Numbered from the stretch's first letter, positions 25,380 to 48,158 are shown. The stretch is DNA of 64,000 nt from Candidatus Amesbacteria bacterium GW2011_GWB1_47_19 (GCA_001002325.1 LCNZ01000003.1:7484-71483); one strand, 5' to 3'. Notes: generated from the sequence alone by a model not told the origin. Program-made: numbers and translations.

Positions 25380-25742
25380 TTGATAATCAAATCCATGGCC
25401 TTCAGTTTTCAAAACCAGGTCACTTACGAACAGCTGCTTATTTTTGCCAAGGACATCTTCGCCTTCACCGGAAAATTACCCAGCTACGAATCCAACGGCC
25501 TGATTCTTAGGATACGGAACCTGGCCTCTTCACTGCTCCAGGAATACGCTCTCGGTTCCACCCGGGTTTCCAAGGTCAATTTTTCTCAAGCCGTGGAAAA
25601 ATGTATTGTCTTGGTAGCTCAGATTGTTTCCCTTTCCGACCTTTGTGTGCATTTGGGTTACGCTACCCTTACTGCCCAGCGTTCCCTGATTCTTTCCGCC
25701 GAGGATATCACCAAACGGCTCTACCAGCTCCGCAAGCCATAA
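25380..25742 (+). CDS. four-helix-bundle protein (23S rRNA intervening-sequence-protein-like)
   Basis: Pattern NGLILRIRNLASSLLQEYALGSTRVSKVNFSQAVEKCIVLVAQ... fits the ygLtsQlrRaa.Si..NiaEG family. Such genes often lie inside tRNA/rRNA clusters. Confidence 0.45.
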   Translation: MIIKSMAFSFQNQVTYEQLLIFAKDIFAFTGKLPSYESNGLILRIRNLASSLLQEYALGSTRVSKVNFSQAVEKCIVLVAQIVSLSDLCVHLGYATLTAQRSLILSAEDITKRLYQLRKP

Positions 25743-27697: not shown

Positions 27698-27769
27698 AGG
27701 GCTGTGATGTCAACGGTAGCATGGCGGTCTCCAAAACCGCTCGTCCAGGTTCGAATCCTGGCAGCCCTG
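27698..27769 (+). tRNA. tRNA-Trp (anticodon CCA)
   Basis: Acceptor AGGGCTG/CAGCCCT, anticodon stem GCGGT/ACCGC with loop CTCCAAA, T-arm CCAGG TTCGAAT CCTGG. Sits in the classical position between rpmG and secE. Confidence 0.85.
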
Positions 27770-27796
27770 CAAAATAACCCATAGTTTGACTATCTT

Positions 27797-28102
27797 TTGT
27801 TCCTTTGGTACAATACTTCACAAATGGCACAGACACAACAAGAATCCTCAGTAGCAACTATCCGTGATGAAGCGTTAGGTCACGCCGATGTACTAAAAAC
27901 CTTACTTTCTATTGCCAAGCACGCAGATACCCCTGTTATTTGTTTGGCTTGTATCAAGTCAAATGCTACCGGAAATGCATGTACCGTTGGTCAAGATATG
28001 CACGGTGAAGTTAGTCGTAAATGGAAGTGGGAATCAGAATATAATTCTCCCTTAATTGATATTTGCCCAGAATTTGTCTCAAACATTGTTGCCAAAAAGT
28101 AA
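27797..28102 (+). CDS. hypothetical protein
   Basis: 101 aa ORF, first gene after tRNA-Trp. No motif recognised. Confidence 0.3.
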   Translation: MFLWYNTSQMAQTQQESSVATIRDEALGHADVLKTLLSIAKHADTPVICLACIKSNATGNACTVGQDMHGEVSRKWKWESEYNSPLIDICPEFVSNIVAKK

Positions 28103-28106
28103 TACT

Positions 28107-28388
28107 ATGCCATCAGAAAACAAAGCCCGCCAAAGACACCACGATTATTATGTTGCCCAACTACGTAAAGGTAAACTGCTGGTAGAAGAACTTCCAAATC
28201 TCCAATTAGCCATGAAAAGGGAAAAAGCGGGTGAAGTAAACCCTCTTTCTGGTGGAAGATTAGATTCGGTGAGGCTATTTTTTGCAACAATGTCCTATAA
28301 TCTGACGAAACTTGTATATGGTCCAAAAAAACTTCATCCCAAACATCAAAACACTGAAACTCATGAGGACGACAATTCCACCAAATAA
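28107..28388 (+). CDS. hypothetical protein
   Basis: 93 aa from the internal ATG (MPSENKARQRHHDYY...) directly after the preceding stop. Confidence 0.25.
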   Translation: MPSENKARQRHHDYYVAQLRKGKLLVEELPNLQLAMKREKAGEVNPLSGGRLDSVRLFFATMSYNLTKLVYGPKKLHPKHQNTETHEDDNSTK

Positions 28389-28581
28389 GCTGGTCCAAAC
28401 CTTGGTTTCAGAAATTTCCCAATCCCCTCCAAACCAAAGTCATACGAGTTCAAACTAAGCCAAATTTGGCGAAGTTTGGCCACTAAGCCCTGGAAAAATT
28501 CTCGGCCTCAGCTATTGGTATCAATCTACATAAAAACATTACAACCCCCAACAGGTATCGAACCTGTAATGTAAAATTAAC

Positions 28582-29184
28582 CTAATGCTTGGGGTACTCT
28601 TGCTTCCAAGCGTCTTGAGTAAGAACTCTAGTCTGAATACCACCGGCTTCTAACTTAGATTGAACATTGCCAACTTTGTGCTCGCTAGAAATCAAAACAG
28701 CTTCAATATATTCAGACTGTAAAGGAATAGATGGCAAATCCGGATATTCGCCTGTGCAATCATAACCCGGCAACTCCATAATTCCCGGTTTAAACACCCA
28801 AGTGGCCATACCTTCCCCCGTCAGGTTCGCCGCTCCCAAACCCCCTCTAACCAAATTACCCTGAGCATCATATCGGTCACGAGTCATCTGCACTACATCC
28901 GGTCTAGCCGTACCCCCAGTCTTTCGACCCAAAGCTTTCTGCATATCCGTCGAAAATAATGCTCTGTCTGTAATTACGCTATCTATTCTATCAACAGGCA
29001 TCTGATGATAATGGTTTAATGGCCCTTTTTCAGTCTCTTTTACTTTCTCCTTCGCAAAATCTCTAACCATTCCCAATGCTTCCTCAGGTTTCAAACCATG
29101 AGCCTTCGAAAACTGGTTCACATCCATGCGTCTTTCTAGCCTGACTCCGGCATGAGAAGACAACCTATTCCTCAAAGAGACCAA
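28582..29184 (-). CDS. hypothetical protein (cassette 1)
   Basis: 200 aa, no recognised motif. Followed on its upstream side by repeat R1. Confidence 0.35.
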   Translation of the reverse strand: MVSLRNRLSSHAGVRLERRMDVNQFSKAHGLKPEEALGMVRDFAKEKVKETEKGPLNHYHQMPVDRIDSVITDRALFSTDMQKALGRKTGGTARPDVVQMTRDRYDAQGNLVRGGLGAANLTGEGMATWVFKPGIMELPGYDCTGEYPDLPSIPLQSEYIEAVLISSEHKVGNVQSKLEAGGIQTRVLTQDAWKQEYPKH

Positions 29185-29350
29185 ATCCTGCTCTCGTTTA
29201 CCCCAACTTCGGCAGCTCTTTGAATTACAGCCTGAAGTCCTAACAATCCTGAAGTATCTACCTTCTGTTCCTTGACTACCCTTACTCCAACAAACTCGGC
29301 AGTTGTGTTGTCAGACATGTCCTAATTCTACACCGATAACCCGATACTAA

Positions 29351-29398
29351 GCTAAATTTGAGCGTACCAGGTTCGAATACTTTCCATCCAAGGCTGCT
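29351..29398 (+). repeat. tRNA-Trp-3'-end-like cassette boundary repeat R1 (short form)
   Basis: GCTAAATTTGAGCGTACCAGGTTCGAATACTTTCCATCCAAGGCTGCTAAAA. Shares CCAGGTTCGAAT with the tRNA-Trp T-arm and ...GCTGC(A/T)AAA with the tRNA 3' end/flank. Confidence 0.6.
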
Positions 29399-29474
29399 AA
29401 AAAATTCCGAAGCTAGTTTTTGTATCAAACTATATCAACGGACAAATGGAATCGAACCCAGGTACTTAAACTCT

Positions 29475-29990
29475 CTACTTATTATCATTCAACATTTTAT
29501 TGTAAAACTTATACTTGGCTTCTTGATAATCCCGATAACTTCTACCATTAAACCTCCACTTCAATTCCTCATATTCTTTCAATAATTTATTGTCTGATCT
29601 TAAAATATCAAAAACTTTAATCTGCCTATTAGGAGGTTCAGTTAGGTAAATTTCAATATCATATCCTTCTTGTTTAAACTTCCATTCTACAAATCGCTTT
29701 TTTACATAATCCCCCTGTTTATTTATTTCACCAAATAACTTCTCCATATCTGGTAAATAATCAGCAAAATCGTTTGCGTCAGCTAAAACATAAATATCAA
29801 CATCCTTCTGCCCGGATATACCTAGAGCCGCTGACCCCATAAATTTAATTACAGCATTTGGAAAACTATTTCTTATTTTCAAAACGATCTCATCACCAAG
29901 CTTTTTTCCAATCGGATCAAACGGAAATACATTTGCCTTCCGCAAGGGATCAATCTTTTTTAGATAATTCCTTTCTTCCCTAGTTAACAC
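29475..29990 (-). CDS. GrpB/minimal nucleotidyltransferase family protein (cassette 2)
   Basis: IKFMGSAALGISGQKDVDIYVL matches the GrpB/Lnu-type NTase motif hIGSTaVpGlaaKpiIDI. Confidence 0.5.
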   Translation of the reverse strand: MLTREERNYLKKIDPLRKANVFPFDPIGKKLGDEIVLKIRNSFPNAVIKFMGSAALGISGQKDVDIYVLADANDFADYLPDMEKLFGEINKQGDYVKKRFVEWKFKQEGYDIEIYLTEPPNRQIKVFDILRSDNKLLKEYEELKWRFNGRSYRDYQEAKYKFYNKMLNDNK

Positions 29991-30010
29991 GCGTTAATTA
30001 TATCAATGAC

Positions 30011-30050
30011 GAGCATAAAAGGTTCGAATGTCTTCCATCCAGAGCTGCAA
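30011..30050 (+). repeat. cassette boundary repeat R2 (short form)
   Basis: GAGCATAAAAGGTTCGAATGTCTTCCATCCAGAGCTGCAAAA. Confidence 0.6.
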
Positions 30051-30083
30051 AATTTATAATTCCGACCGTGGTATACTAAATCC

Positions 30084-30467
30084 ATGAAAGAAGAAGCTAA
30101 AACCTGGCTCGAGCAAGCTGAAGACAGCCTCAAAGACGCCGAGTTTCTCTACTCCGGCTCCAGATACTCAATGGCCGTCTATTGTTGCCACCAAGCCTTG
30201 GAAAAACTGCTCAAAGGTTGCATTATTCAGTTTGCCAACCAGCTTCCCCCCAAATCCCACAATCTGGACGCTCTGGCCCGTCTAACCACACTAAAGTTTC
30301 CTGAAATCTGGTTGGAAGACCTAGCCGAAATCACCCGCCACTTCTGGCGGGTTCGCTACCCCGACTTCCAAAGATTTGTCTATACCTCAAAAGAATCTAT
30401 TGAGCCTACTTACTCCAAGACCCGGGAGGTATTTATATGGATCAGACAGCAATTACCCAAAACCTAA
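30084..30467 (+). CDS. HEPN domain protein (putative toxin of a HEPN/MNT pair)
   Basis: AEDSLKDAEFLYSGSRYSMAVYCCHQALEKLLKGCII...SHNLDALARL fits the HEPN (PF05168-type) helical pattern. Overlaps the following MNT gene by 31 nt. Confidence 0.55.
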   Translation: MKEEAKTWLEQAEDSLKDAEFLYSGSRYSMAVYCCHQALEKLLKGCIIQFANQLPPKSHNLDALARLTTLKFPEIWLEDLAEITRHFWRVRYPDFQRFVYTSKESIEPTYSKTREVFIWIRQQLPKT

Positions 30468-30760
30468 AGGACTATCTTGTCAGACTCAGTAAATTCGTCT
30501 CTATAGACGAAGCTTATTTGTTCGGTTCATCCTCGACAGGAACGGCCAAAGAAGACAGTGATATAGATTTGTTGATTTTATCTCGGGATTTTTCCAAATA
30601 CGATCCCGACACTCGTCTGAAAATCATTTATCGAGCCAGCAGCGGATTCCCCTACGACTTACACGCTTACGGTGTGACCCCGGAAGAATACGCTTCAGCC
30701 TCACCCCTTACCACCCTCGGAGCCATTAGATCCACCAACCCTCCAGCCATTCAAATTTGA
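30437..30760 (+). CDS. minimal nucleotidyltransferase (MNT, putative antitoxin)
   Basis: Classic polymerase-beta NTase motif LFGSSSTGTAKEDSDIDLLIL. Confidence 0.7.
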   Translation: MDQTAITQNLKDYLVRLSKFVSIDEAYLFGSSSTGTAKEDSDIDLLILSRDFSKYDPDTRLKIIYRASSGFPYDLHAYGVTPEEYASASPLTTLGAIRSTNPPAIQI

Positions 30761-30843
30761 GCGTAATAGGTTCGTTCTGTATCGCAGATACAGGAGTGGT
30801 GAGCTAATCGAACCATGCACATGTCTTCCATCCAAGGCTGCAA
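30751..30843 (+). repeat. cassette boundary repeat R3 (long form with internal hairpins)
   Basis: Starts at the MNT stop codon: AAATTTGAGCGTAATAGGTTCG[ttCTGTATCgcaGATACAGgagtggtgagctaatCGAACC]ATGCACATGTCTTCCATCCAAGGCTGCAAAC. Confidence 0.6.
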
Positions 30844-30852
30844 ACAAAAACG

Positions 30853-31086
30853 CTAATCCGGAAAATTTAGGCGGGAAGCACAAGTTGCATCCGTTTTATA
30901 TATAAGGAAATTCCAAAAGGGCTTGTAACACGAAGGTTCTTCTGCACATTTACCGGTAATTCTATTTCTCTCTGCAGGCTGAATACCCATACAAACTCCA
31001 AACAACATATTAAGTACATGGGTTACACCCCACAGCAGCAAAACTACTATTCCAATCCATATCCACCTGGATAAGGGTTTATTCAT
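30853..31086 (-). CDS. small membrane protein, hypothetical
   Basis: 77 aa with two TM helices. Confidence 0.3.
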   Translation of the reverse strand: MNKPLSRWIWIGIVVLLLWGVTHVLNMLFGVCMGIQPAERNRITGKCAEEPSCYKPFWNFLIYKTDATCASRLNFPD

Positions 31087-31335
31087 TAAGATATTTATAT
31101 ACTCATAACTATATTCATATCAAATCTGTTTAAATCCGCCCAGGTGTTCCTCATTTCGTTCACAGGCTTCTGCAAAATAAAAAGTTCGGGACTTATACCC
31201 GGATTTTTTGTTTACAAAGGAAGAATCGTCCGAGCACGCCCCTCACGACTTCCGAAAGCGGAAGCGAAGCTGAGCATTGAGAAACAACAAAGTGCGGTAA
31301 GAAATAGCTTTTGTTGTGCCTTTTCTATAACTACC

Positions 31336-32256
31336 CTACTCCCAACGCCCAGTATCTTTAGGGTCAAATTTTCCATCCTTATCATAAGATTTTCGTGAAA
31401 TTAATCTGTCACACTCCTGTTCTAATGGGCAATCATTATGTCTTTTTTTATTACAACCCTGATTTCCTACATTCCATAACACTTCTGATACTCGTCTAGT
31501 GTCCCAACCGTTTTCATAAGTAACTTGTCCAAGCACCTTGTTTACAGCAGTAGTCACCTGGTGTACGTTTTCCGGCTGCTTGAGCGTCACCCCTCCCGTC
31601 TGAACCAGTACTCTGGCTACCTGAAAATCTACTGGTAATCCTCCTCCATTTGTACCTTGAAATTCATATAGACCATATTGGTTCATCCATTGAACAACCA
31701 ATGCTGACAGCTTTGGACCATATCTGGTAAACACCCCTTTCTTCCGTTTCTCTTCAGTTTTCGCTCTCGGCCGTACCGTCAATGCCTGAACCACTCTTTC
31801 CGCGTCACCACCAAGTTCATCCAGAAAATTCCTAATGTCACTCCCGTATCTTTCACCTAATATCCGAATATTATATGACCACTCTTGGACTACTCTTCTA
31901 TTATATCCTGCCGGTCGGAAAAAACTGGCACAACCAGCCATTATTTTTCCATCATCCCACACTAAAGCCTCACTTGGATTGAATATCCATGAATATTCAG
32001 CTAACCTGTTGGGATCAGTAATCCTGCTAAATAATTTTCCAGTATCGTCACCAAACACAAAAGCGGTCGTTAGGAATACTGCATTTGGTGCAAATTCTGA
32101 TTTACCAGTTTTTCTGCCATAGTCTTTAGCTAACTCAATAAACAACTCTTCTGGCCGAAACACTCCTTCAGAAAAAAATCCCTGTTGTTGTTCCAATGCA
32201 CCCAGAACTTTATTAACAATTAATACTGTTCTTTCTGCATTAATTTCTACGCCCAT
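31336..32256 (-). CDS. hypothetical protein, possibly HhH-fold glycosylase-like
   Basis: 306 aa. The segment GVFTRYGPKLSALVVQWM resembles a helix-hairpin-helix element. Assignment is weak. Confidence 0.25.
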   Translation of the reverse strand: MGVEINAERTVLIVNKVLGALEQQQGFFSEGVFRPEELFIELAKDYGRKTGKSEFAPNAVFLTTAFVFGDDTGKLFSRITDPNRLAEYSWIFNPSEALVWDDGKIMAGCASFFRPAGYNRRVVQEWSYNIRILGERYGSDIRNFLDELGGDAERVVQALTVRPRAKTEEKRKKGVFTRYGPKLSALVVQWMNQYGLYEFQGTNGGGLPVDFQVARVLVQTGGVTLKQPENVHQVTTAVNKVLGQVTYENGWDTRRVSEVLWNVGNQGCNKKRHNDCPLEQECDRLISRKSYDKDGKFDPKDTGRWE

Positions 32257-32300
32257 CTTCCGCGTATTGTACCATCGTTCGTAATTTCTAATCCTATAAA

Positions 32301-32365
32301 GCTAACAGGTTCCAACATAGTGCTTCGACCAGGTTCACCATCCCAGACCCACCTGCCCCTGCAAA
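32301..32365 (+). repeat. cassette boundary repeat R5 (divergent form)
   Basis: GCTAACAGGTTCCAACATAGTGCTTCGACCAGGTTCACCATCCCAGACCCACCTGCCCCTGCAAAA. Shares the end CCCTGCAAAA with the tRNA-Trp 3' end plus flank. Confidence 0.5.
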
Positions 32366-32393
32366 ACAGCCTCGAAAATGATATGATTAACAT

Positions 32394-32660
32394 ATGATTA
32401 ACTGGTCCACTGACGAAATAAAATTTAAAAAAAGCCACCCAAAAGAATATCGTCTTTGGCGACTCACCCAACTAATTAACTACGGCCTGGATGGTGAAAA
32501 GTTAGATAGACACGAGGTTAAACAAGCGTGGACGAAAATTAAAGCCGATTTAGATCCCCACAAAGCAGTATACTTAGAGTATCTTTTATGGGACGTAACA
32601 CCATCCTCACCCCAATTCAACGAAAATTTCTGGAGCTTGTCCAAGCAGAAAAATATTTAA
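32394..32660 (+). CDS. small protein upstream of AbiEii, possible AbiEi-like antitoxin
   Basis: 88 aa, overlaps the downstream NTase toxin gene by 73 nt. Called by position only. Confidence 0.3.
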   Translation: MINWSTDEIKFKKSHPKEYRLWRLTQLINYGLDGEKLDRHEVKQAWTKIKADLDPHKAVYLEYLLWDVTPSSPQFNENFWSLSKQKNI

Positions 32661-33265
32661 CTTCAAAATATTATTGGACGGGCGGGACTGTCCTATCTGA
32701 ATTCTATTTACACCACCGTGACTCCGAGGATATAGATTTATTCACAGAAGCAGATGAAGTTAATTTGCCGAGTGTGAAGGATTTTGTTGGCATTGTAGGT
32801 GCCAAACTAGGAGCCAAGGGCATCAGCTATACCCGATTTTTAGGACTCCACACTTTCGTCCTCACTTTTAATGAGAATAACCAACTAAAAATCGATTTCA
32901 ATTATTATCCTTTTCTTCGTATAAATACCAGTAAAAAATGGAACAATATCAACATCGACAGTATTGAGGATATAGCTGTAAATAAAGTTCATACTATCTC
33001 AGTCAAACCAAGATCCCGTGATTTTATTGATTTGTATTTCTTACTTAAGGACAAAAAATGGGGATTGTCTCTCCCCAAACTGATTGGTCTTGCCAAAGCC
33101 AAGTTTGATTGGGACATAAACCCTATCCAAATGGGTGAAAATTTGGCGAAAGTTGTAACAGTTAAAGATTTACCCCGAATATTGGTGCCATTTGATCAAA
33201 AAGAAATGGAAAATTTCTTGCTAAAAATGGCCAAATCCCTAGATAGCAGTATCTTCAAGAATTAA
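32588..33265 (+). CDS. nucleotidyltransferase AbiEii/AbiGii toxin family protein (DUF1814)
   Basis: YYWTGGTVLSEFYLHHRDSEDIDLF matches the AbiEii signature (GGTALs..Y..hR.SeDlDlf). Confidence 0.65.
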   Translation: MGRNTILTPIQRKFLELVQAEKYLTSKYYWTGGTVLSEFYLHHRDSEDIDLFTEADEVNLPSVKDFVGIVGAKLGAKGISYTRFLGLHTFVLTFNENNQLKIDFNYYPFLRINTSKKWNNINIDSIEDIAVNKVHTISVKPRSRDFIDLYFLLKDKKWGLSLPKLIGLAKAKFDWDINPIQMGENLAKVVTVKDLPRILVPFDQKEMENFLLKMAKSLDSSIFKN

Positions 33266-33353
33266 TTTGTGCGTACCAGGTTCGTTCTGATATCGAAGTG
33301 GTGCGAAGATATCAGGAGGTGAAACCGCACATGTCTTCCATCCAGGGCTGCAT
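33262..33353 (+). repeat. cassette boundary repeat R4 (long form with internal hairpins)
   Basis: Starts at the AbiEii stop: AATTTGTGCGTACCAGGTTCG[ttCTGATATCGaagtggtgCGAAGATATCAGgaggtgaaaCCGCAC]ATGTCTTCCATCCAGGGCTGCATAAA. Confidence 0.6.
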
Positions 33354-33374
33354 AAATTTCCAATCGTATCACCG

Positions 33375-33545
33375 ATGTTAGGTCGGGACATTATTGACGA
33401 AACTGTTTTTTTAGGCGAAATTGCAGGGCAAGTAGACCTTCGCATAGAACCCCACCCGATGATCCCGGAAGACTTTACCGAAAAATACAATCCCCTGGCC
33501 GATGAAGTTAAATCCAACGGCACGCCGCTGAATCTCCCCCGCTAA
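33375..33545 (+). CDS. 56 aa ORF / gene remnant inside a mini-cassette
   Basis: MLGRDIIDETVFLGEIAGQVDLRIEPHPMIPEDFTEKYNPLADEVKSNGTPLNLPR. Protein-like composition, lies between R4 and R6. Confidence 0.2.
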   Translation: MLGRDIIDETVFLGEIAGQVDLRIEPHPMIPEDFTEKYNPLADEVKSNGTPLNLPR

Positions 33546-33615
33546 GTTAGAATCAGGTTCCAACATAATGGTTCGACTTCGCTCACCATCTGCAATGCAC
33601 CAGCCTCTACTGCAT
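33541..33615 (+). repeat. cassette boundary repeat R6 (divergent form)
   Basis: GCTAAGTTAGAATCAGGTTCCAACATAATGGTTCGACTTCGCTCACCATCTGCAATGCACCAGCCTC. Contains an inverted GGTTC...GGTTCGAC pair. Confidence 0.5.
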
Positions 33616-45369: not shown

Positions 45370-45693
45370 ATGAATATGTCTAATGTAGGTTTTAACAAAA
45401 TTCAAGTCAAACAATTAAAGTCCCTTCTTAAAACTAACAATCCTAATTTAGAGACCTCAATAATTAAGCAGGTATCCTCCCATATCGCAGATGTTGTAGA
45501 CGCTCTCAGTCAGACTATCAGTGAAACCGAAACCAGGATCACCGAAAATTTTAGGCATGATACTAAGCACGAATCCAATAAACTTCGGGGGGATATTAAA
45601 AACCTCTCAACTACCATGGCTACTAAATACCAGGTCGATAACCACGAAAATCGTATTAAAGTGTTGGAAACAAAAGCATTCACTTCTGGTTAG
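45370..45693 (+). CDS. hypothetical coiled-coil protein
   Basis: 107 aa with heptad-like composition and no recognised motif. Confidence 0.25.
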   Translation: MNMSNVGFNKIQVKQLKSLLKTNNPNLETSIIKQVSSHIADVVDALSQTISETETRITENFRHDTKHESNKLRGDIKNLSTTMATKYQVDNHENRIKVLETKAFTSG

Positions 45694-47258
45694 CCCACCT
45701 GTCTGTACTGCAGCGCCTCCGCCATATGCACGGGCAAGATGTCTTTCTCTCCCGCCAGATCGGCAATCGTCCGCGCTACCTTTATCAGCTTAAAATATGC
45801 CCTGGCGGACAAATCCCATTTCTCCACCGCCAGCCGCAAAATCCTTTCCGACTCCCCTGTCAGCGGGCAATATTTTCTAACCTGTTTATTTTTCATCTGG
45901 GAGTTGGTAAAGATGCTTTCATCTCTAAATCTCAAATCCTGAATTTTCCTCGAATCAATTACTTTTTTCCTCACCTCTTTGGAGCTTGAACCTAGACCTG
46001 CCTTGCCGGCAGGCAAGCTTGGACTTGAACTCAACTTATCCGTCTCCACCGCCGGCACCTGAACATGCAAATCAATCCTGTCCAGAATCGGACCGGACAT
46101 CCTGGCCCGGTATTTCCTGATCTGTTTGTCGCTGCACCGGCATTCCCGCCGGGGATGTCCCAAATACCCGCACGGGCAGGGATTGACAGCTGCCACCAAA
46201 GTAAAACTGGCCGGATAAGACACATGCGCCGCCGCCCTGACTATCTGCACCTGACCGTCCTCCATGGGCTGCCTCAAGCCTTCCAGAACCGACCGGGGAA
46301 ATTCCGGCATTTCATCCAGAAACAGCACCCCCAGATGTGCCAAAGACACCTCTCCCGGTAATGGATTGCTTCCCCCGCCGATCATCCCCGCTGCCGATAC
46401 TCCATGATGCGGACTTCGAAATGGTCTTCTCCTCACTAACGACTCACCCGGTTCCAATAGTCCCGCGACCGAGTACACCCGTGTCACTTCCAGCGCTTCA
46501 GCTGAATTTAATGACGGCAAAATTCCCGGCATTGCCCTGGCCAACATGGTCTTTCCCGTCCCCGGCGGACCCCACATCAACAAGTTGTGTCCTCCGGCTG
46601 CGGCTATGGATAGAGCGCGTTTTGCCTGTTCCTGCCCGGCAACCTCCGCCAGATCATACTCCACTCCCCCTTCTTCAACCAGCTCCTTGACTTCCACTTT
46701 ACCCAATTTCTTTATCTGCTTCACTTCATTCAGATGGTCCGTCAACTCTATTAAATTCCTCACCGGGTATACGGTTATTCCCTCCACCACCGCCGCCTCA
46801 TTCGCACTTTCAATCGGAACAAATATTTGAGTTTTGATTTTTGAATTTTGTGTTTGTTGGGCGAATAGCCCAACCAAAAGCACTCCCTTTGTTGCCCGCA
46901 AACTTCCATCCAGACTTAATTCACCATAAAATATGGTGTTTTTAAAATTGAAAAATGGTAATTGAAAATTTAGCTGTCCCGAGGCAGCGAGTATCCCCAC
47001 CGCCATCGGCAAATCGTATGCTCCCCCGTCCTTGGGTAAATCCGCCGGCGCTAGGTTTACGGTAATTTTCTTGGATGGAAAATCCATCCCCGAATTATTA
47101 ATCGCCGTCTTCACCCGCTCCCGGGCCTCCTCTACCGCCTTACCCGCCAGCCCGACTATGGTAAATCCCGGAAATCCGGCTTCCGCCACATCCACCTCCA
47201 CCTCCACCGGCATCGTCACCAACCCCACATTCGCCACACTCCTAACTTTTACCAGCAC
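45690..47258 (-). CDS. comM: Mg-chelatase-like AAA+ ATPase YifB/ComM
   Basis: N-terminal Lon-like domain. Walker A GPPGTGKT and Walker B VLFLDE. C-terminal Mg_chelatase_C region. Confidence 0.85.
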   Translation of the reverse strand: MLVKVRSVANVGLVTMPVEVEVDVAEAGFPGFTIVGLAGKAVEEARERVKTAINNSGMDFPSKKITVNLAPADLPKDGGAYDLPMAVGILAASGQLNFQLPFFNFKNTIFYGELSLDGSLRATKGVLLVGLFAQQTQNSKIKTQIFVPIESANEAAVVEGITVYPVRNLIELTDHLNEVKQIKKLGKVEVKELVEEGGVEYDLAEVAGQEQAKRALSIAAAGGHNLLMWGPPGTGKTMLARAMPGILPSLNSAEALEVTRVYSVAGLLEPGESLVRRRPFRSPHHGVSAAGMIGGGSNPLPGEVSLAHLGVLFLDEMPEFPRSVLEGLRQPMEDGQVQIVRAAAHVSYPASFTLVAAVNPCPCGYLGHPRRECRCSDKQIRKYRARMSGPILDRIDLHVQVPAVETDKLSSSPSLPAGKAGLGSSSKEVRKKVIDSRKIQDLRFRDESIFTNSQMKNKQVRKYCPLTGESERILRLAVEKWDLSARAYFKLIKVARTIADLAGEKDILPVHMAEALQYRQVG

Positions 47259-47324
47259 TTTCTCTGTTTTAGAACAATTAGATCGGTCAGGTCAATCGTC
47301 TGATCCTTTACGGTACATCCGGCA

Positions 47325-48158
47325 TTACCCACCGATAAAATACTTCCCGTCTTTTTCTTTAATTTCCCCGGAAAGCGTCATCACTGACAGTTGCGCCCCC
47401 ATTTCATTTACCGAGCGCATCAATTTTCTAGCCAGTTCATCTACCGTCAACGTCTCATTCTCTAACAATCTGTAAATATCTGCATTCTTATCATCGCTTT
47501 TAGCATCATTAGTAGTTCGTTGACTCACCTGTTGCTCCGGCAACCACATCTGTGCCTTTTTCTCGGCAATTAACCGGTTTGTACCGTCAGATACTCTGCT
47601 TGTCACCGGTCCCGGCACCGCCCAGACTCTTTTCCCCAGCTTTATCGCCCATTCCACAGTTATCATGCTCCCGCTTTTAACCGCAGCTTCTACCACATAT
47701 ACTTCGTCCGCCAGAGCAGCCATAATCCTGTCCCGCTGCGGAAAAGTCCATAAAGTACCTGCCTGATCTTCCCATTCCGAAACAACCAACCCCCCTTTCT
47801 CAATAATTTCATTCATAATACTTAAATCTTCGGCCGTGATTCCTTTATAGTCGATTCCCCAGCCCAGCACAGCCACTGTCCTTCCCCCGCTGGCCATGCA
47901 CGCCCGGTGAGCCGCCTGATCCACCCCGTACATCATTCCCGATATCACTGTCGCTCCCCCGTTTACCAGTTGCGGCACAATTTTGTCAACCACTCTCCTC
48001 CCGTACTCCGTTATCCTCCGGCTTCCCACAACCGCTGCCGCGTGATCAAACCAGCTTTCATCCCAGCCGTCTTTTCCCCGCCAAAACAGCTTTTTAACCG
48101 CCGGTTTAACTGCTGAAAAATTCGGTATTTTCGTTGCATCTACCACCCCCTGCTTCAT
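47325..48158 (-). CDS. dprA: DNA-processing protein DprA (Smf)
   Basis: Rossmann-like core AAVVGSRRITEYGRRV...VISGMMYGVDQAAHRACMASGGRTVAVLGWGID typical of DprA. Confidence 0.8.
   Translation of the reverse strand: MKQGVVDATKIPNFSAVKPAVKKLFWRGKDGWDESWFDHAAAVVGSRRITEYGRRVVDKIVPQLVNGGATVISGMMYGVDQAAHRACMASGGRTVAVLGWGIDYKGITAEDLSIMNEIIEKGGLVVSEWEDQAGTLWTFPQRDRIMAALADEVYVVEAAVKSGSMITVEWAIKLGKRVWAVPGPVTSRVSDGTNRLIAEKKAQMWLPEQQVSQRTTNDAKSDDKNADIYRLLENETLTVDELARKLMRSVNEMGAQLSVMTLSGEIKEKDGKYFIGG

Follow-up and report, generated by a model that had tools for sequence, protein, structure and literature searches.

Behind the tRNA-Trp gene of Candidatus Amesbacteria bacterium GW2011_GWB1_47_19 (Microgenomates group, candidate phyla radiation [CPR]), six same-orientation repeats, R1 to R6, bound a series of gene cassettes of 0.2-1.6 kb. 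The stretch analyzed (LCNZ01000003.1:7484-71483; 64,000 nucleotides, hereafter the window) is a housekeeping gene region in which NusG and ribosomal protein L11 are not reached until 43.7 kb, far downstream of tRNA-Trp. Comparison with related loci indicates, at a probability of about 0.75, that the repeats are attachment sites of large serine recombinases (LSRs), and that these enzymes, recombining at tRNA-Trp, assembled the array as a stack of small mobile cassettes on an attB formed by the tRNA 3' end, in the manner of the staphylococcal cassette chromosome (SCC) or of an integron. Four observations carry this reading: the site forms the end of LSR genes, breakpoints coincide at a common CTGC, cassettes turn over between related genomes, and LSR elements lie within the arrays. 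How the cassettes that lack an LSR move is inferred. An initial annotation of the window had proposed a mobile cassette array anchored at tRNA-Trp and bounded by site-specific recombination sites, and the differing cassettes of sister genomes support that proposal.

Two repeat families and the recombinase gene end

The six elements of the initial annotation were confirmed on the plus strand close to the positions first assigned, with cassette genes on both strands (Table 1). All six sites, and tRNA-Trp itself, terminate in CTGC. The left and right ends that had been described as common to all copies were found in R1, R2, R3 and R5 (type A; the left end of R2 is degenerate). R4 and R6 form a separate family (type B), 75% identical to one another and sharing with type A only CAGGTTC, CCATC and the terminal CTGC(A). 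A degenerate 15-mer (TCCATCCARRGCTGC) had exactly four matches in the 64 kb, all within the array, and a gapped pattern of the left and right ends had zero matches in shuffled sequence. R3 overlaps the TGA of the MNT gene, as had been noted; the same placement at a stop codon was not found for R4, which precedes the start codon of a minus-strand gene by approximately 45 nt, and it is R5 that starts at the TAA of AbiEii.

Type A occurred in short and long forms. The long forms contained an insert of 27-60 nt at one fixed position, with a hairpin whose sequence varied and whose pairing was kept (CTGTATC/GATACAG in R3, CTGATATC/GATATCAG in R5, and AATTATTTT/AAAATAATT). This kept pairing, and the overlap of two sites with stop codons, would suit functional RNA or transcription signals at gene ends, such as terminators, riboswitch-like elements or ribozymes. 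That explanation is extremely improbable: at the repeats no Rfam family was matched at the gathering threshold or at E<=10 (the tRNA alone was matched), a region scan placed no terminator-like site at any repeat, site orientation is independent of gene orientation, and the strand opposite carries a protein-coding substitution pattern (below). Plain terminators, which the initial annotation had named as fatal to an attachment site, were thus not what the repeats proved to be.

The suggestion that the sites are hairpin-forming counterparts of attC did not hold either. Single-strand folding of the short forms was no better than that of shuffles on either strand (z +0.15 to +1.0), and R''/R' boxes (RYYYAAC/GTTRRRY) were not seen on reading the repeat sequences. 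An integron-like system, with an IntI-like tyrosine recombinase acting on single-strand hairpins, would account for the same-orientation site that ends every short cassette, for the toxin-antitoxin cargo and for variable arrays at a fixed locus. It is nonetheless highly improbable given the folding and box results, the presence of genes on both strands and of at least one promoter-like site within a cassette, and the finding of only LSRs in the arrays.

A metagenome scan with the type A right half returned 39 stretches. The left half was also present in approximately 25 of the 39, i.e., approximately 25 further type A copies, and the consensus was TAA(A/T)TTTG(A/T)GCGTAA(A/T)A(A/G)GTTCGAATGTCTTCCATCCAGGGCTGC. 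A profile search was then run on the fetched loci and revealed eight same-orientation type A copies spaced 0.4-1.4 kb apart in locus L137, six copies in L179, four in L147, and two each in L134, L143 and L161; L135 contained three to five long-form copies. R1 was 96% identical to the site after the HEPN/MNT cassette of a sister Amesbacteria genome (BLAST, L176 10670-10715), and R3 was 88% identical to L133 2188-2281. The array started at tRNA-Trp in L150, L161, L172 and L176, and tRNA-Trp was the anchor in all loci with sufficient flank. A search of genome contigs with the motif TTCCATCCARRGCTGC was discarded as too loose, its matches (L001-L080) being chance occurrences in unrelated phyla. 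Viral contigs contained no match to the DNA motif or to the LSR C-terminal profile.

Type A copies varied chiefly at every third base (23/42/62 differences per codon position). Their minus strand reads (L)QPWMEDIRT[F/Y/W]YAQ[I/N/T]-stop, and that of R1 encodes QPWMESIRTWYAQI-stop. For 31 unique copies, codon differences in the minus-strand frame QPWMEDIRTFYAQ were synonymous in 42 cases and non-synonymous in 55, as against 9-19 and 77-91, respectively, in each of the remaining five frames. Conservation ends sharply upstream of the Q codon, where most reading frames are closed, so the array copies appear to be detached gene ends. In L169 the peptide terminates an open reading frame (ORF) of at least 146 residues whose homologues are the C-terminal parts of LSRs.

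The corresponding full-length LSR family (approximately 500 aa; Resolvase, Recombinase and Zn_ribbon_recom domains) is large in Microgenomates. It is conserved through ...PYDVLLQP..RS.VQ and divergent beyond. Two full-length members, P0043 and P0060 (L172/L173), terminate exactly in ..VQPWMEDIRTWQARIC; full-length LSR ORFs ending in the same peptide rule out an earlier candidate, a free-standing mini-ORF of 11 residues. Antisense tRNA T-loop sequence formed the tail of 65 of the 116 full-length relatives (e.g., QGWRESNP.., QGCQDSNL..), with the Trp anticodon read through (FWR) in 19 of these 65. A stop within four residues of the junction was found in 39 of the 116, and xRT[FYW] tails, as in the attP state, in eight, P0043 and P0060 among them. 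A second subfamily, approximately 30% identical to P0043/P0060 and including the LSR of the sister Amesbacteria, contained both tail states. Within it, P0150 (L175/L176) ends in antisense tRNA-Trp, and P0151 (L179; Resolvase, Recombinase and Zn_ribbon_recom), 79% identical to P0150, ends in ..WQAWMEDIRTWYAQI, the nearest match to R1 of the window.

An LSR was encoded beside the site in L172/L173 (P0060), L175/L176 (P0150), L179 (P0151) and L170. In L170 and in the sister Amesbacteria (L176) the LSR gene runs opposite to tRNA-Trp and overlaps the tRNA 3' end. In L172/L173 and L179 the LSR gene terminates in a type A site; another such site closes the element 6-7 kb away, and these elements are flanked by further cassettes that lack a recombinase and carry type A sites. 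L176 and L179 have one LSR-side arm in common (CAATTACCATTTTCC...), whose partner across CTGC is tRNA-Trp in L176 and type A in L179, the attL/attP relationship expected for one enzyme. The tRNA-Trp-adjacent LSR gene of L170 (1951-3447) contains one in-frame stop past residue 253 and was called as two genes; this could reflect a pseudogene, a sequencing error or recoding.

Because the type A peptide ends full-length LSRs whose frames cross the crossover, and because the ends of most relatives run antisense into tRNA-Trp, type A reads as the element-side (P) arm of an LSR attachment site. The tRNA-Trp 3' half would be the host-side (B) arm, which supports its earlier description as copy zero of the series. 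The QGLVDYV.. encoded by short type B copies (L143, L179) is similar to the tail that P0036-like LSRs have in the attP state, and type B is thus most likely the P arm of another LSR subfamily. This tail reading displaced an alternative for R4 and R6 as remnants of the LSR 'GWNLIL' region, suggested by a 15-nt identity with L169.

The initial annotation had also offered serial integration into tRNA-Trp, each event leaving a degenerate tRNA scar; the repeats are instead a conserved family of their own that encodes the LSR C-terminal tail. In its usual form, with tyrosine-integrase islands that each leave a 3'-end duplicate and later lose the integrase, this explanation would account for the tRNA anchor, the uniform site orientation and the partial similarity to the T-arm and acceptor end. 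It is very improbable, since the sites are far closer to each other than to the tRNA and 5 nt longer, show codon-type substitutions and conservation in many metagenomes, and form the 3' end of serine recombinase genes, and since cassettes of 0.2-1.6 kb are too small for an integrase. No tyrosine recombinase was present among the precomputed Pfam labels of L172, L176 and L179 genes or among approximately 40 window ORFs (L137 was seen as ORF translations only), and the recombinases noticed in related arrays were LSRs, each one.

Type A aligns to tRNA-Trp 3' halves through GTTCGA(A/T)T, TTCCA(C/T)CC and CTGC, with a net five extra bases between TTCGA and CTGC; the blocks are inferred motifs and modestly Trp-specific. 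In most copies elsewhere the 'T-loop' is AAGTTCGAAT, not GGTTCGAAT. Rutherford et al. placed the LSR zinc-ribbon motif 5 bp closer to the centre in attB than in attP (PMC3783163). Because the five-base excess matches this published shift, the tRNA mimicry gains a mechanistic reading, in which the P and B arms would present the same recognition blocks at attP and attB spacings. The offset is consistent with this rather than proof of it, given the moderate tRNA-Trp specificity and the non-significant dyad symmetry detailed below.

Breakpoints at CTGC and cassette turnover

Six independent pairwise comparisons placed the breakpoint exactly at CTGC, including comparisons of cassettes preceded by differing site families. 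CTGC is found alike in tRNA-Trp, in both site types and at the LSR gene junction. The AbiE cassette lies behind a type B site (R4) in the window and behind type A in L172/L131, and homology begins directly after CTGC; homologous AbiE-type cassettes were found by BLAST in L172/L131/L162 and L135. The HEPN/MNT cassette, 79% identical in nucleotides between the window and L176, is preceded by type A (R2) in the window and by a site with a QALL tail in L176, and its homology starts at 30045, within CTGC. L145 and L147 are identical until CTGC and unrelated beyond; L161 and L135 are unrelated until CTGC and identical beyond.

Cassette content differed between related genomes at the same locus. L137 and L133 have the right flank of the window (a PAS-domain gene, with sequence shared from 33621, right after R6) and wholly different cassettes. 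L176 shares the left and the far-right flanks and differs in cassette content, its order being ribosomal protein L33, tRNA-Trp/LSR, approximately 9 kb of other genes, HEPN/MNT with type A, GIY-YIG and Fic with type A, cohesin/dockerin, Ddl, CofD, SecE and NusG. The GIY-YIG cassette is common to L137 and L176. The comparison of relatives proposed in the initial annotation thus yielded sister genomes with different cassette sets at one locus and some cassettes shared with precise boundaries. The same genes in the same order, which had been named as evidence against mobility, were seen at strain level only and not at species level; the HEPN and AbiEii proteins have identical copies on GCA_001773795.1 and on Rifle-aquifer scaffolds, and an exact-match query with the L33 protein gave no hit.

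Homologous recombination might also shuffle cassettes: following natural transformation, blocks could be exchanged at the 45-nt repeats, which would serve as portable homology patches and are perhaps relics of old LSR activity. At 85-96% identity the repeats are similar enough, and also long enough, for short-patch recombination; DprA and a ComM-like Mg-chelatase protein are encoded in the window; and the site that ends the HEPN/MNT cassette is short in L176 and long in the window, which points to exchange inside the site. This account is nevertheless unlikely, because the breakpoint is the same four bases even where the left sites differ in family and share almost only CTGC, as for the AbiE (type B vs. 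type A) and HEPN (QALL-type vs. type A) cassettes, and because the position of CTGC is also that of the LSR/tRNA junction.

Right of the breakpoint, approximately 40% of flanks have an A-rich run directly past CTGC and then a weakly conserved AGC(C/T)TC(A/G)AA (window 32363-32378 included); TCAAA occurred in 13 of 43 right flanks, with 2.5 expected. The reverse complement of AGC(C/T)TC(A/G)AA resembles the type A start TTTGAGCG, and it might serve as a half-site motif or, alternatively, as an inverted repeat at the cassette termini. In L150 (3271-2400, minus strand) a 52-nt arm with a terminator-like hairpin (CACCCGACGGGTG) follows tRNA-Trp and recurs behind a type A site 0.8 kb downstream. 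The repeat is exact; therefore, the inserted unit and the chromosome had a long identical right arm in common.

A possible route of cassette movement and its relation to known systems

In the proposed mechanism, the free (attP) form would have the LSR gene directly to the right of the site on the minus strand, reading over the core into the P arm, which would encode approximately the last 14 residues of the enzyme (QPWMEDIRT[FYW]YAQI-stop for type A, a QGLV.YV.-type tail for type B). Upon integration at tRNA-Trp the gene would end in antisense tRNA sequence instead. The window junctions could then be read as tRNA, CTGC and A-rich flank (attB-like), followed by six sets of P arm, CTGC and flank (attR-like). 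An LSR core integrated by the tRNA (attL) might excise with any downstream attR-like site and take the intervening cassettes along; having entered tRNA-Trp of a new host, it might drop the cassettes there in a later excision at the nearest site. Any P arm so used would become the LSR tail in the circular form, which would account for the protein-coding substitution pattern still seen in detached copies. Alternative-site excision as the route of cassette movement is put at somewhat less than even odds. The window array has lost its LSR or relies on one elsewhere in the genome, and is fixed in the population.

Several points weigh against an LSR-built array. As the initial annotation had found for integrases, no recombinase was detected in the 64-kb window, by Pfam on the approximately 40 larger ORFs and by whole-window tblastn with one LSR subfamily. 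The array is identical on 10 contigs of the window's own population, with no sign of ongoing turnover, which fits with the absence of an LSR from the window. The insert of the long forms disrupts or changes the recombinase tail frame in most copies, and the frame is interrupted in several of these and by a TGA in R5, so some sites are probably dead. The tRNA resemblance first reported is real and modest, with an alignment z of 3.4 for tRNA-Trp; the window's five other tRNAs gave 0.5-2.8. In L172, comparison of the P arm with the reverse-complemented LSR-side arm showed no significant dyad symmetry (p approximately 0.1-0.3 vs. shuffles). Homologous recombination between 45-nt repeats could imitate part of the cassette shuffling. 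Finally, canonical LSRs recombine attP only with attB and, given a directionality factor, attL with attR; an array of attB-like and attR-like junctions would require alternative-site or non-canonical reactions such as those proposed here.

The closest parallels are SCCmec and its relatives. Composite and tandem SCC stacks include units without a recombinase, and their repeat preserves the end of a coding sequence. SCC elements and the Enterococcus cassette chromosome (ECC) are moved by LSRs at one fixed chromosomal site, with same-orientation boundary repeats of approximately 50 bp and multiple attR sites (PMC6222049). The arrays share with these systems the LSR, the fixed site and direct repeats of approximately 50 bp at the boundaries (four type A and two type B here, up to eight type A in L137), and the proposed excision route would have an analogue in composite SCC elements. 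The multiple attR sites reported in ECC (PMC6222049) would be another. They differ in target, which is the 3' end of rlmH (orfX) in SCC/ECC and of tRNA-Trp here, and in the repeat, which carries the recombinase's own C-terminus rather than that of the target gene. The recombinases of SCC/ECC are ccrAB or ccrC, whose domain architecture the array LSRs share; a single LSR takes the place of the ccrAB pair, and the units, often of one or two genes, are 0.2-1.6 kb rather than 20-80 kb, i.e., 10-100 times smaller, and reside in CPR hosts. The earlier statement that the arrangement was undescribed in this form therefore stands in part: its logic matches SCCmec/ECC (PMC6222049), and a literature search found no description of serine-recombinase or integron-like arrays in CPR/Patescibacteria.

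Phage-type large serine integrases (A118/LI, Bxb1, phiC31) have the same Resolvase, Recombinase, zinc ribbon and coiled-coil architecture and a gene beside attP. Their distal motif is shifted outward by 5 bp between B and P arms (PMC3783163), with which the five extra bases of type A are consistent. In contrast to them, the ORF here crosses the crossover site and its tail is swapped by recombination, and long arrays of recombinase-less cassettes are present that strictly unidirectional attP x attB recombination would not predict. The system is built of ordinary LSR parts; a recombinase ORF that crosses its own crossover site is the unusual twist, and suggests putative self-regulation.

Integrons, sedentary chromosomal ones included, and clusters of attC sites lacking integron-integrases (CALINs) resemble the arrays in their short, toxin-antitoxin-rich cassettes at a fixed locus, each with a single, uniformly oriented site at the same end, and in that a recombinase may be absent nearby. 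Their attC sites are imperfect palindromes of 55-140 nt with R''/L''/L'/R' boxes that fold as single strands. They differ from the arrays, which have a serine recombinase, seemingly double-stranded sites without an attC fold, a tRNA end instead of attI, cassette genes on both strands and, in cassette 0, a promoter-like site of its own. Tycheposons also accumulate in tandem beside a tRNA gene, as elements and cargo-only satellites separated by partial tRNA-like repeats. Islands of that type carry true partial tRNA copies, use mostly tyrosine recombinases and are much larger, whereas the window repeats are a family of their own, 5 nt longer and with a protein-coding pattern.

A more speculative and rather doubtful extension is that the arrays are a serine-recombinase counterpart of the integron, in which one LSR core, resident at tRNA-Trp or shuttling through it, would capture, reorder and export cassettes of one or two toxin-antitoxin or defence genes through attR-like sites, and the tail swap at every recombination event (IRT[FYW]YAQI vs. 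antisense tRNA) would act as an activity or directionality switch. If the cassettes are actively mobilized, they would represent a second, mechanistically independent form of the integron strategy, and the enzymes a natural set of LSRs with defined att sites, LSRs being sought for genome engineering. The genomes of CPR bacteria are tiny, and little is understood of their acquisition of accessory genes. The arrays mark a dedicated, recurrent hotspot behind tRNA-Trp for the exchange of defence and toxin-antitoxin modules in very small units, and the 45-nt motif with its CTGC junction offers an easy means of locating such arrays, with their cargo, in metagenomic data.

Cassette contents and neighbouring features

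Coordinates are collected in Table 1. The cargo calls of the initial annotation were upheld by Pfam or PADLOC for GrpB, HEPN/MNT and AbiEii; the HhH-like, AbiEi and other small proteins had no family support. Elsewhere, type A sites flanked DsbA-like, Fic, GIY-YIG, NUDIX and peptidase genes. An action of the cargo nucleotidyltransferases (GrpB, MNT, AbiEii) on the tRNA-like repeats as substrates or decoys was considered and set aside, because the same sites flank unrelated cargo elsewhere.

Table 1. Positions of the tRNA-Trp anchor, repeats, cassettes and related features (window coordinates unless a locus is named)
Feature	Position	Strand	Description and evidence
tRNA-Trp(CCA)	27698-27770	+	ARAGORN, Rfam; directly after rpmG (L33); crossover core CTGC 27767-27770
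R1	29354-29397	+	short type A; CTGC 29394-29397; nhmmer E=7.5e-11
R2	30011-30048	+	short type A, degenerate left end; CTGC 30045-30048; nhmmer E=5.5e-13
R3	30753-30841	+	long type A, short form plus 45-nt hairpin insert; CTGC 30838-30841
R4	32296-32362	+	type B, long or degenerate form, ends CCCCTGC; CTGC 32359-32362; nhmmer
R5	33264-33351	+	long type A with hairpin; CTGC 33348-33351
R6	33541-33613	+	terminal type B site; CTGC 33610-33613
Hairpin inserts of long type A, window	30775-30819, 33285-33329		
Hairpin insert of long type A, L133	2210-2257		
Hairpin insert of long type A, L135	2469-2495		
Hairpin insert of long type A, L176	13086-13149		
Complete LSR element, L172	7512-1497		type A on both sides
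Complete LSR element, L179	11528-4782		type A on both sides
Cassette 0	27771-29353	both	ORF list; no family match
Cassette 0, small ORFs	27824-28102, 28107-28388	+	ORF list
Cassette 0, ORF pair	28582-29184, 29172-29318	-	ORF list
tRNA 3'-half fragment	28538-28570	-	inverted repeat; T-arm ACAGG-TTCGATA-CCTGT and acceptor TGGGGGT
Type C element	29398-29470	-	approximately 70 nt, antisense tRNA-like; abuts R1, just downstream of the minus-strand GrpB stop
Cassette 1, GrpB-family nucleotidyltransferase	29475-29990	-	Pfam PF04229, E=4.6e-08
Cassette 2, HEPN (toxin-antitoxin pair with MNT)	30084-30467	+	Pfam PF05168
Cassette 2, MNT	30437-30760	+	Pfam PF01909; NCBIfam MntA
Cassette 3	30853-32256	-	no family match
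Cassette 3, 77-aa membrane-like ORF	30853-31086	-	no family match
Cassette 3, 306-aa ORF	31336-32256	-	no family match
Cassette 4	32363-33265	+	
Cassette 4, 88-aa putative AbiEi-like ORF	32394-32660	+	
Cassette 4, AbiEii	32588-33265	+	Pfam PF08843, PADLOC
Cassette 5, 56-aa ORF	33375-33545	+	ORF list

Cassette 0 contained two further features. The strongest sigma-70-like match of the region (27786-27814; TTGACT-17-TACAAT, extended TG) lies 16 nt past the attB-like junction and upstream of the first cassette ORF. The tRNA 3'-half fragment, which was not called by ARAGORN, lies directly past the stop of the minus-strand 200-aa gene and is possibly an att remnant of an inverted module within the cassette.

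The type C element next to R1 recurs after type A sites in L134 (approximately 1630-1700), L143 (approximately 555-625), L131 and L137, with the consensus (A/G)GTTCGATTCC..CCGTTGATATAGTTTGATA..TAGCTTCGGA. It stands head-to-head with some type A sites and looks like a P arm that is shorter and inverted; cassettes that were inserted the other way round may have it as their site.

Outside the array, a gene at 25380-25742, called at the matching position in L123/L124, gave a weak match to 23S_rRNA_IVP (S23-type four-helix bundle). It sits between tRNA-Tyr and tRNA-Thr, and two such genes flank the tRNA cluster of L170. A few kb from the array, the ComM-like Mg-chelatase gene and DprA (45690-48158) represent competence and DNA-processing functions, relevant to the possible entry of cassettes into the cell.

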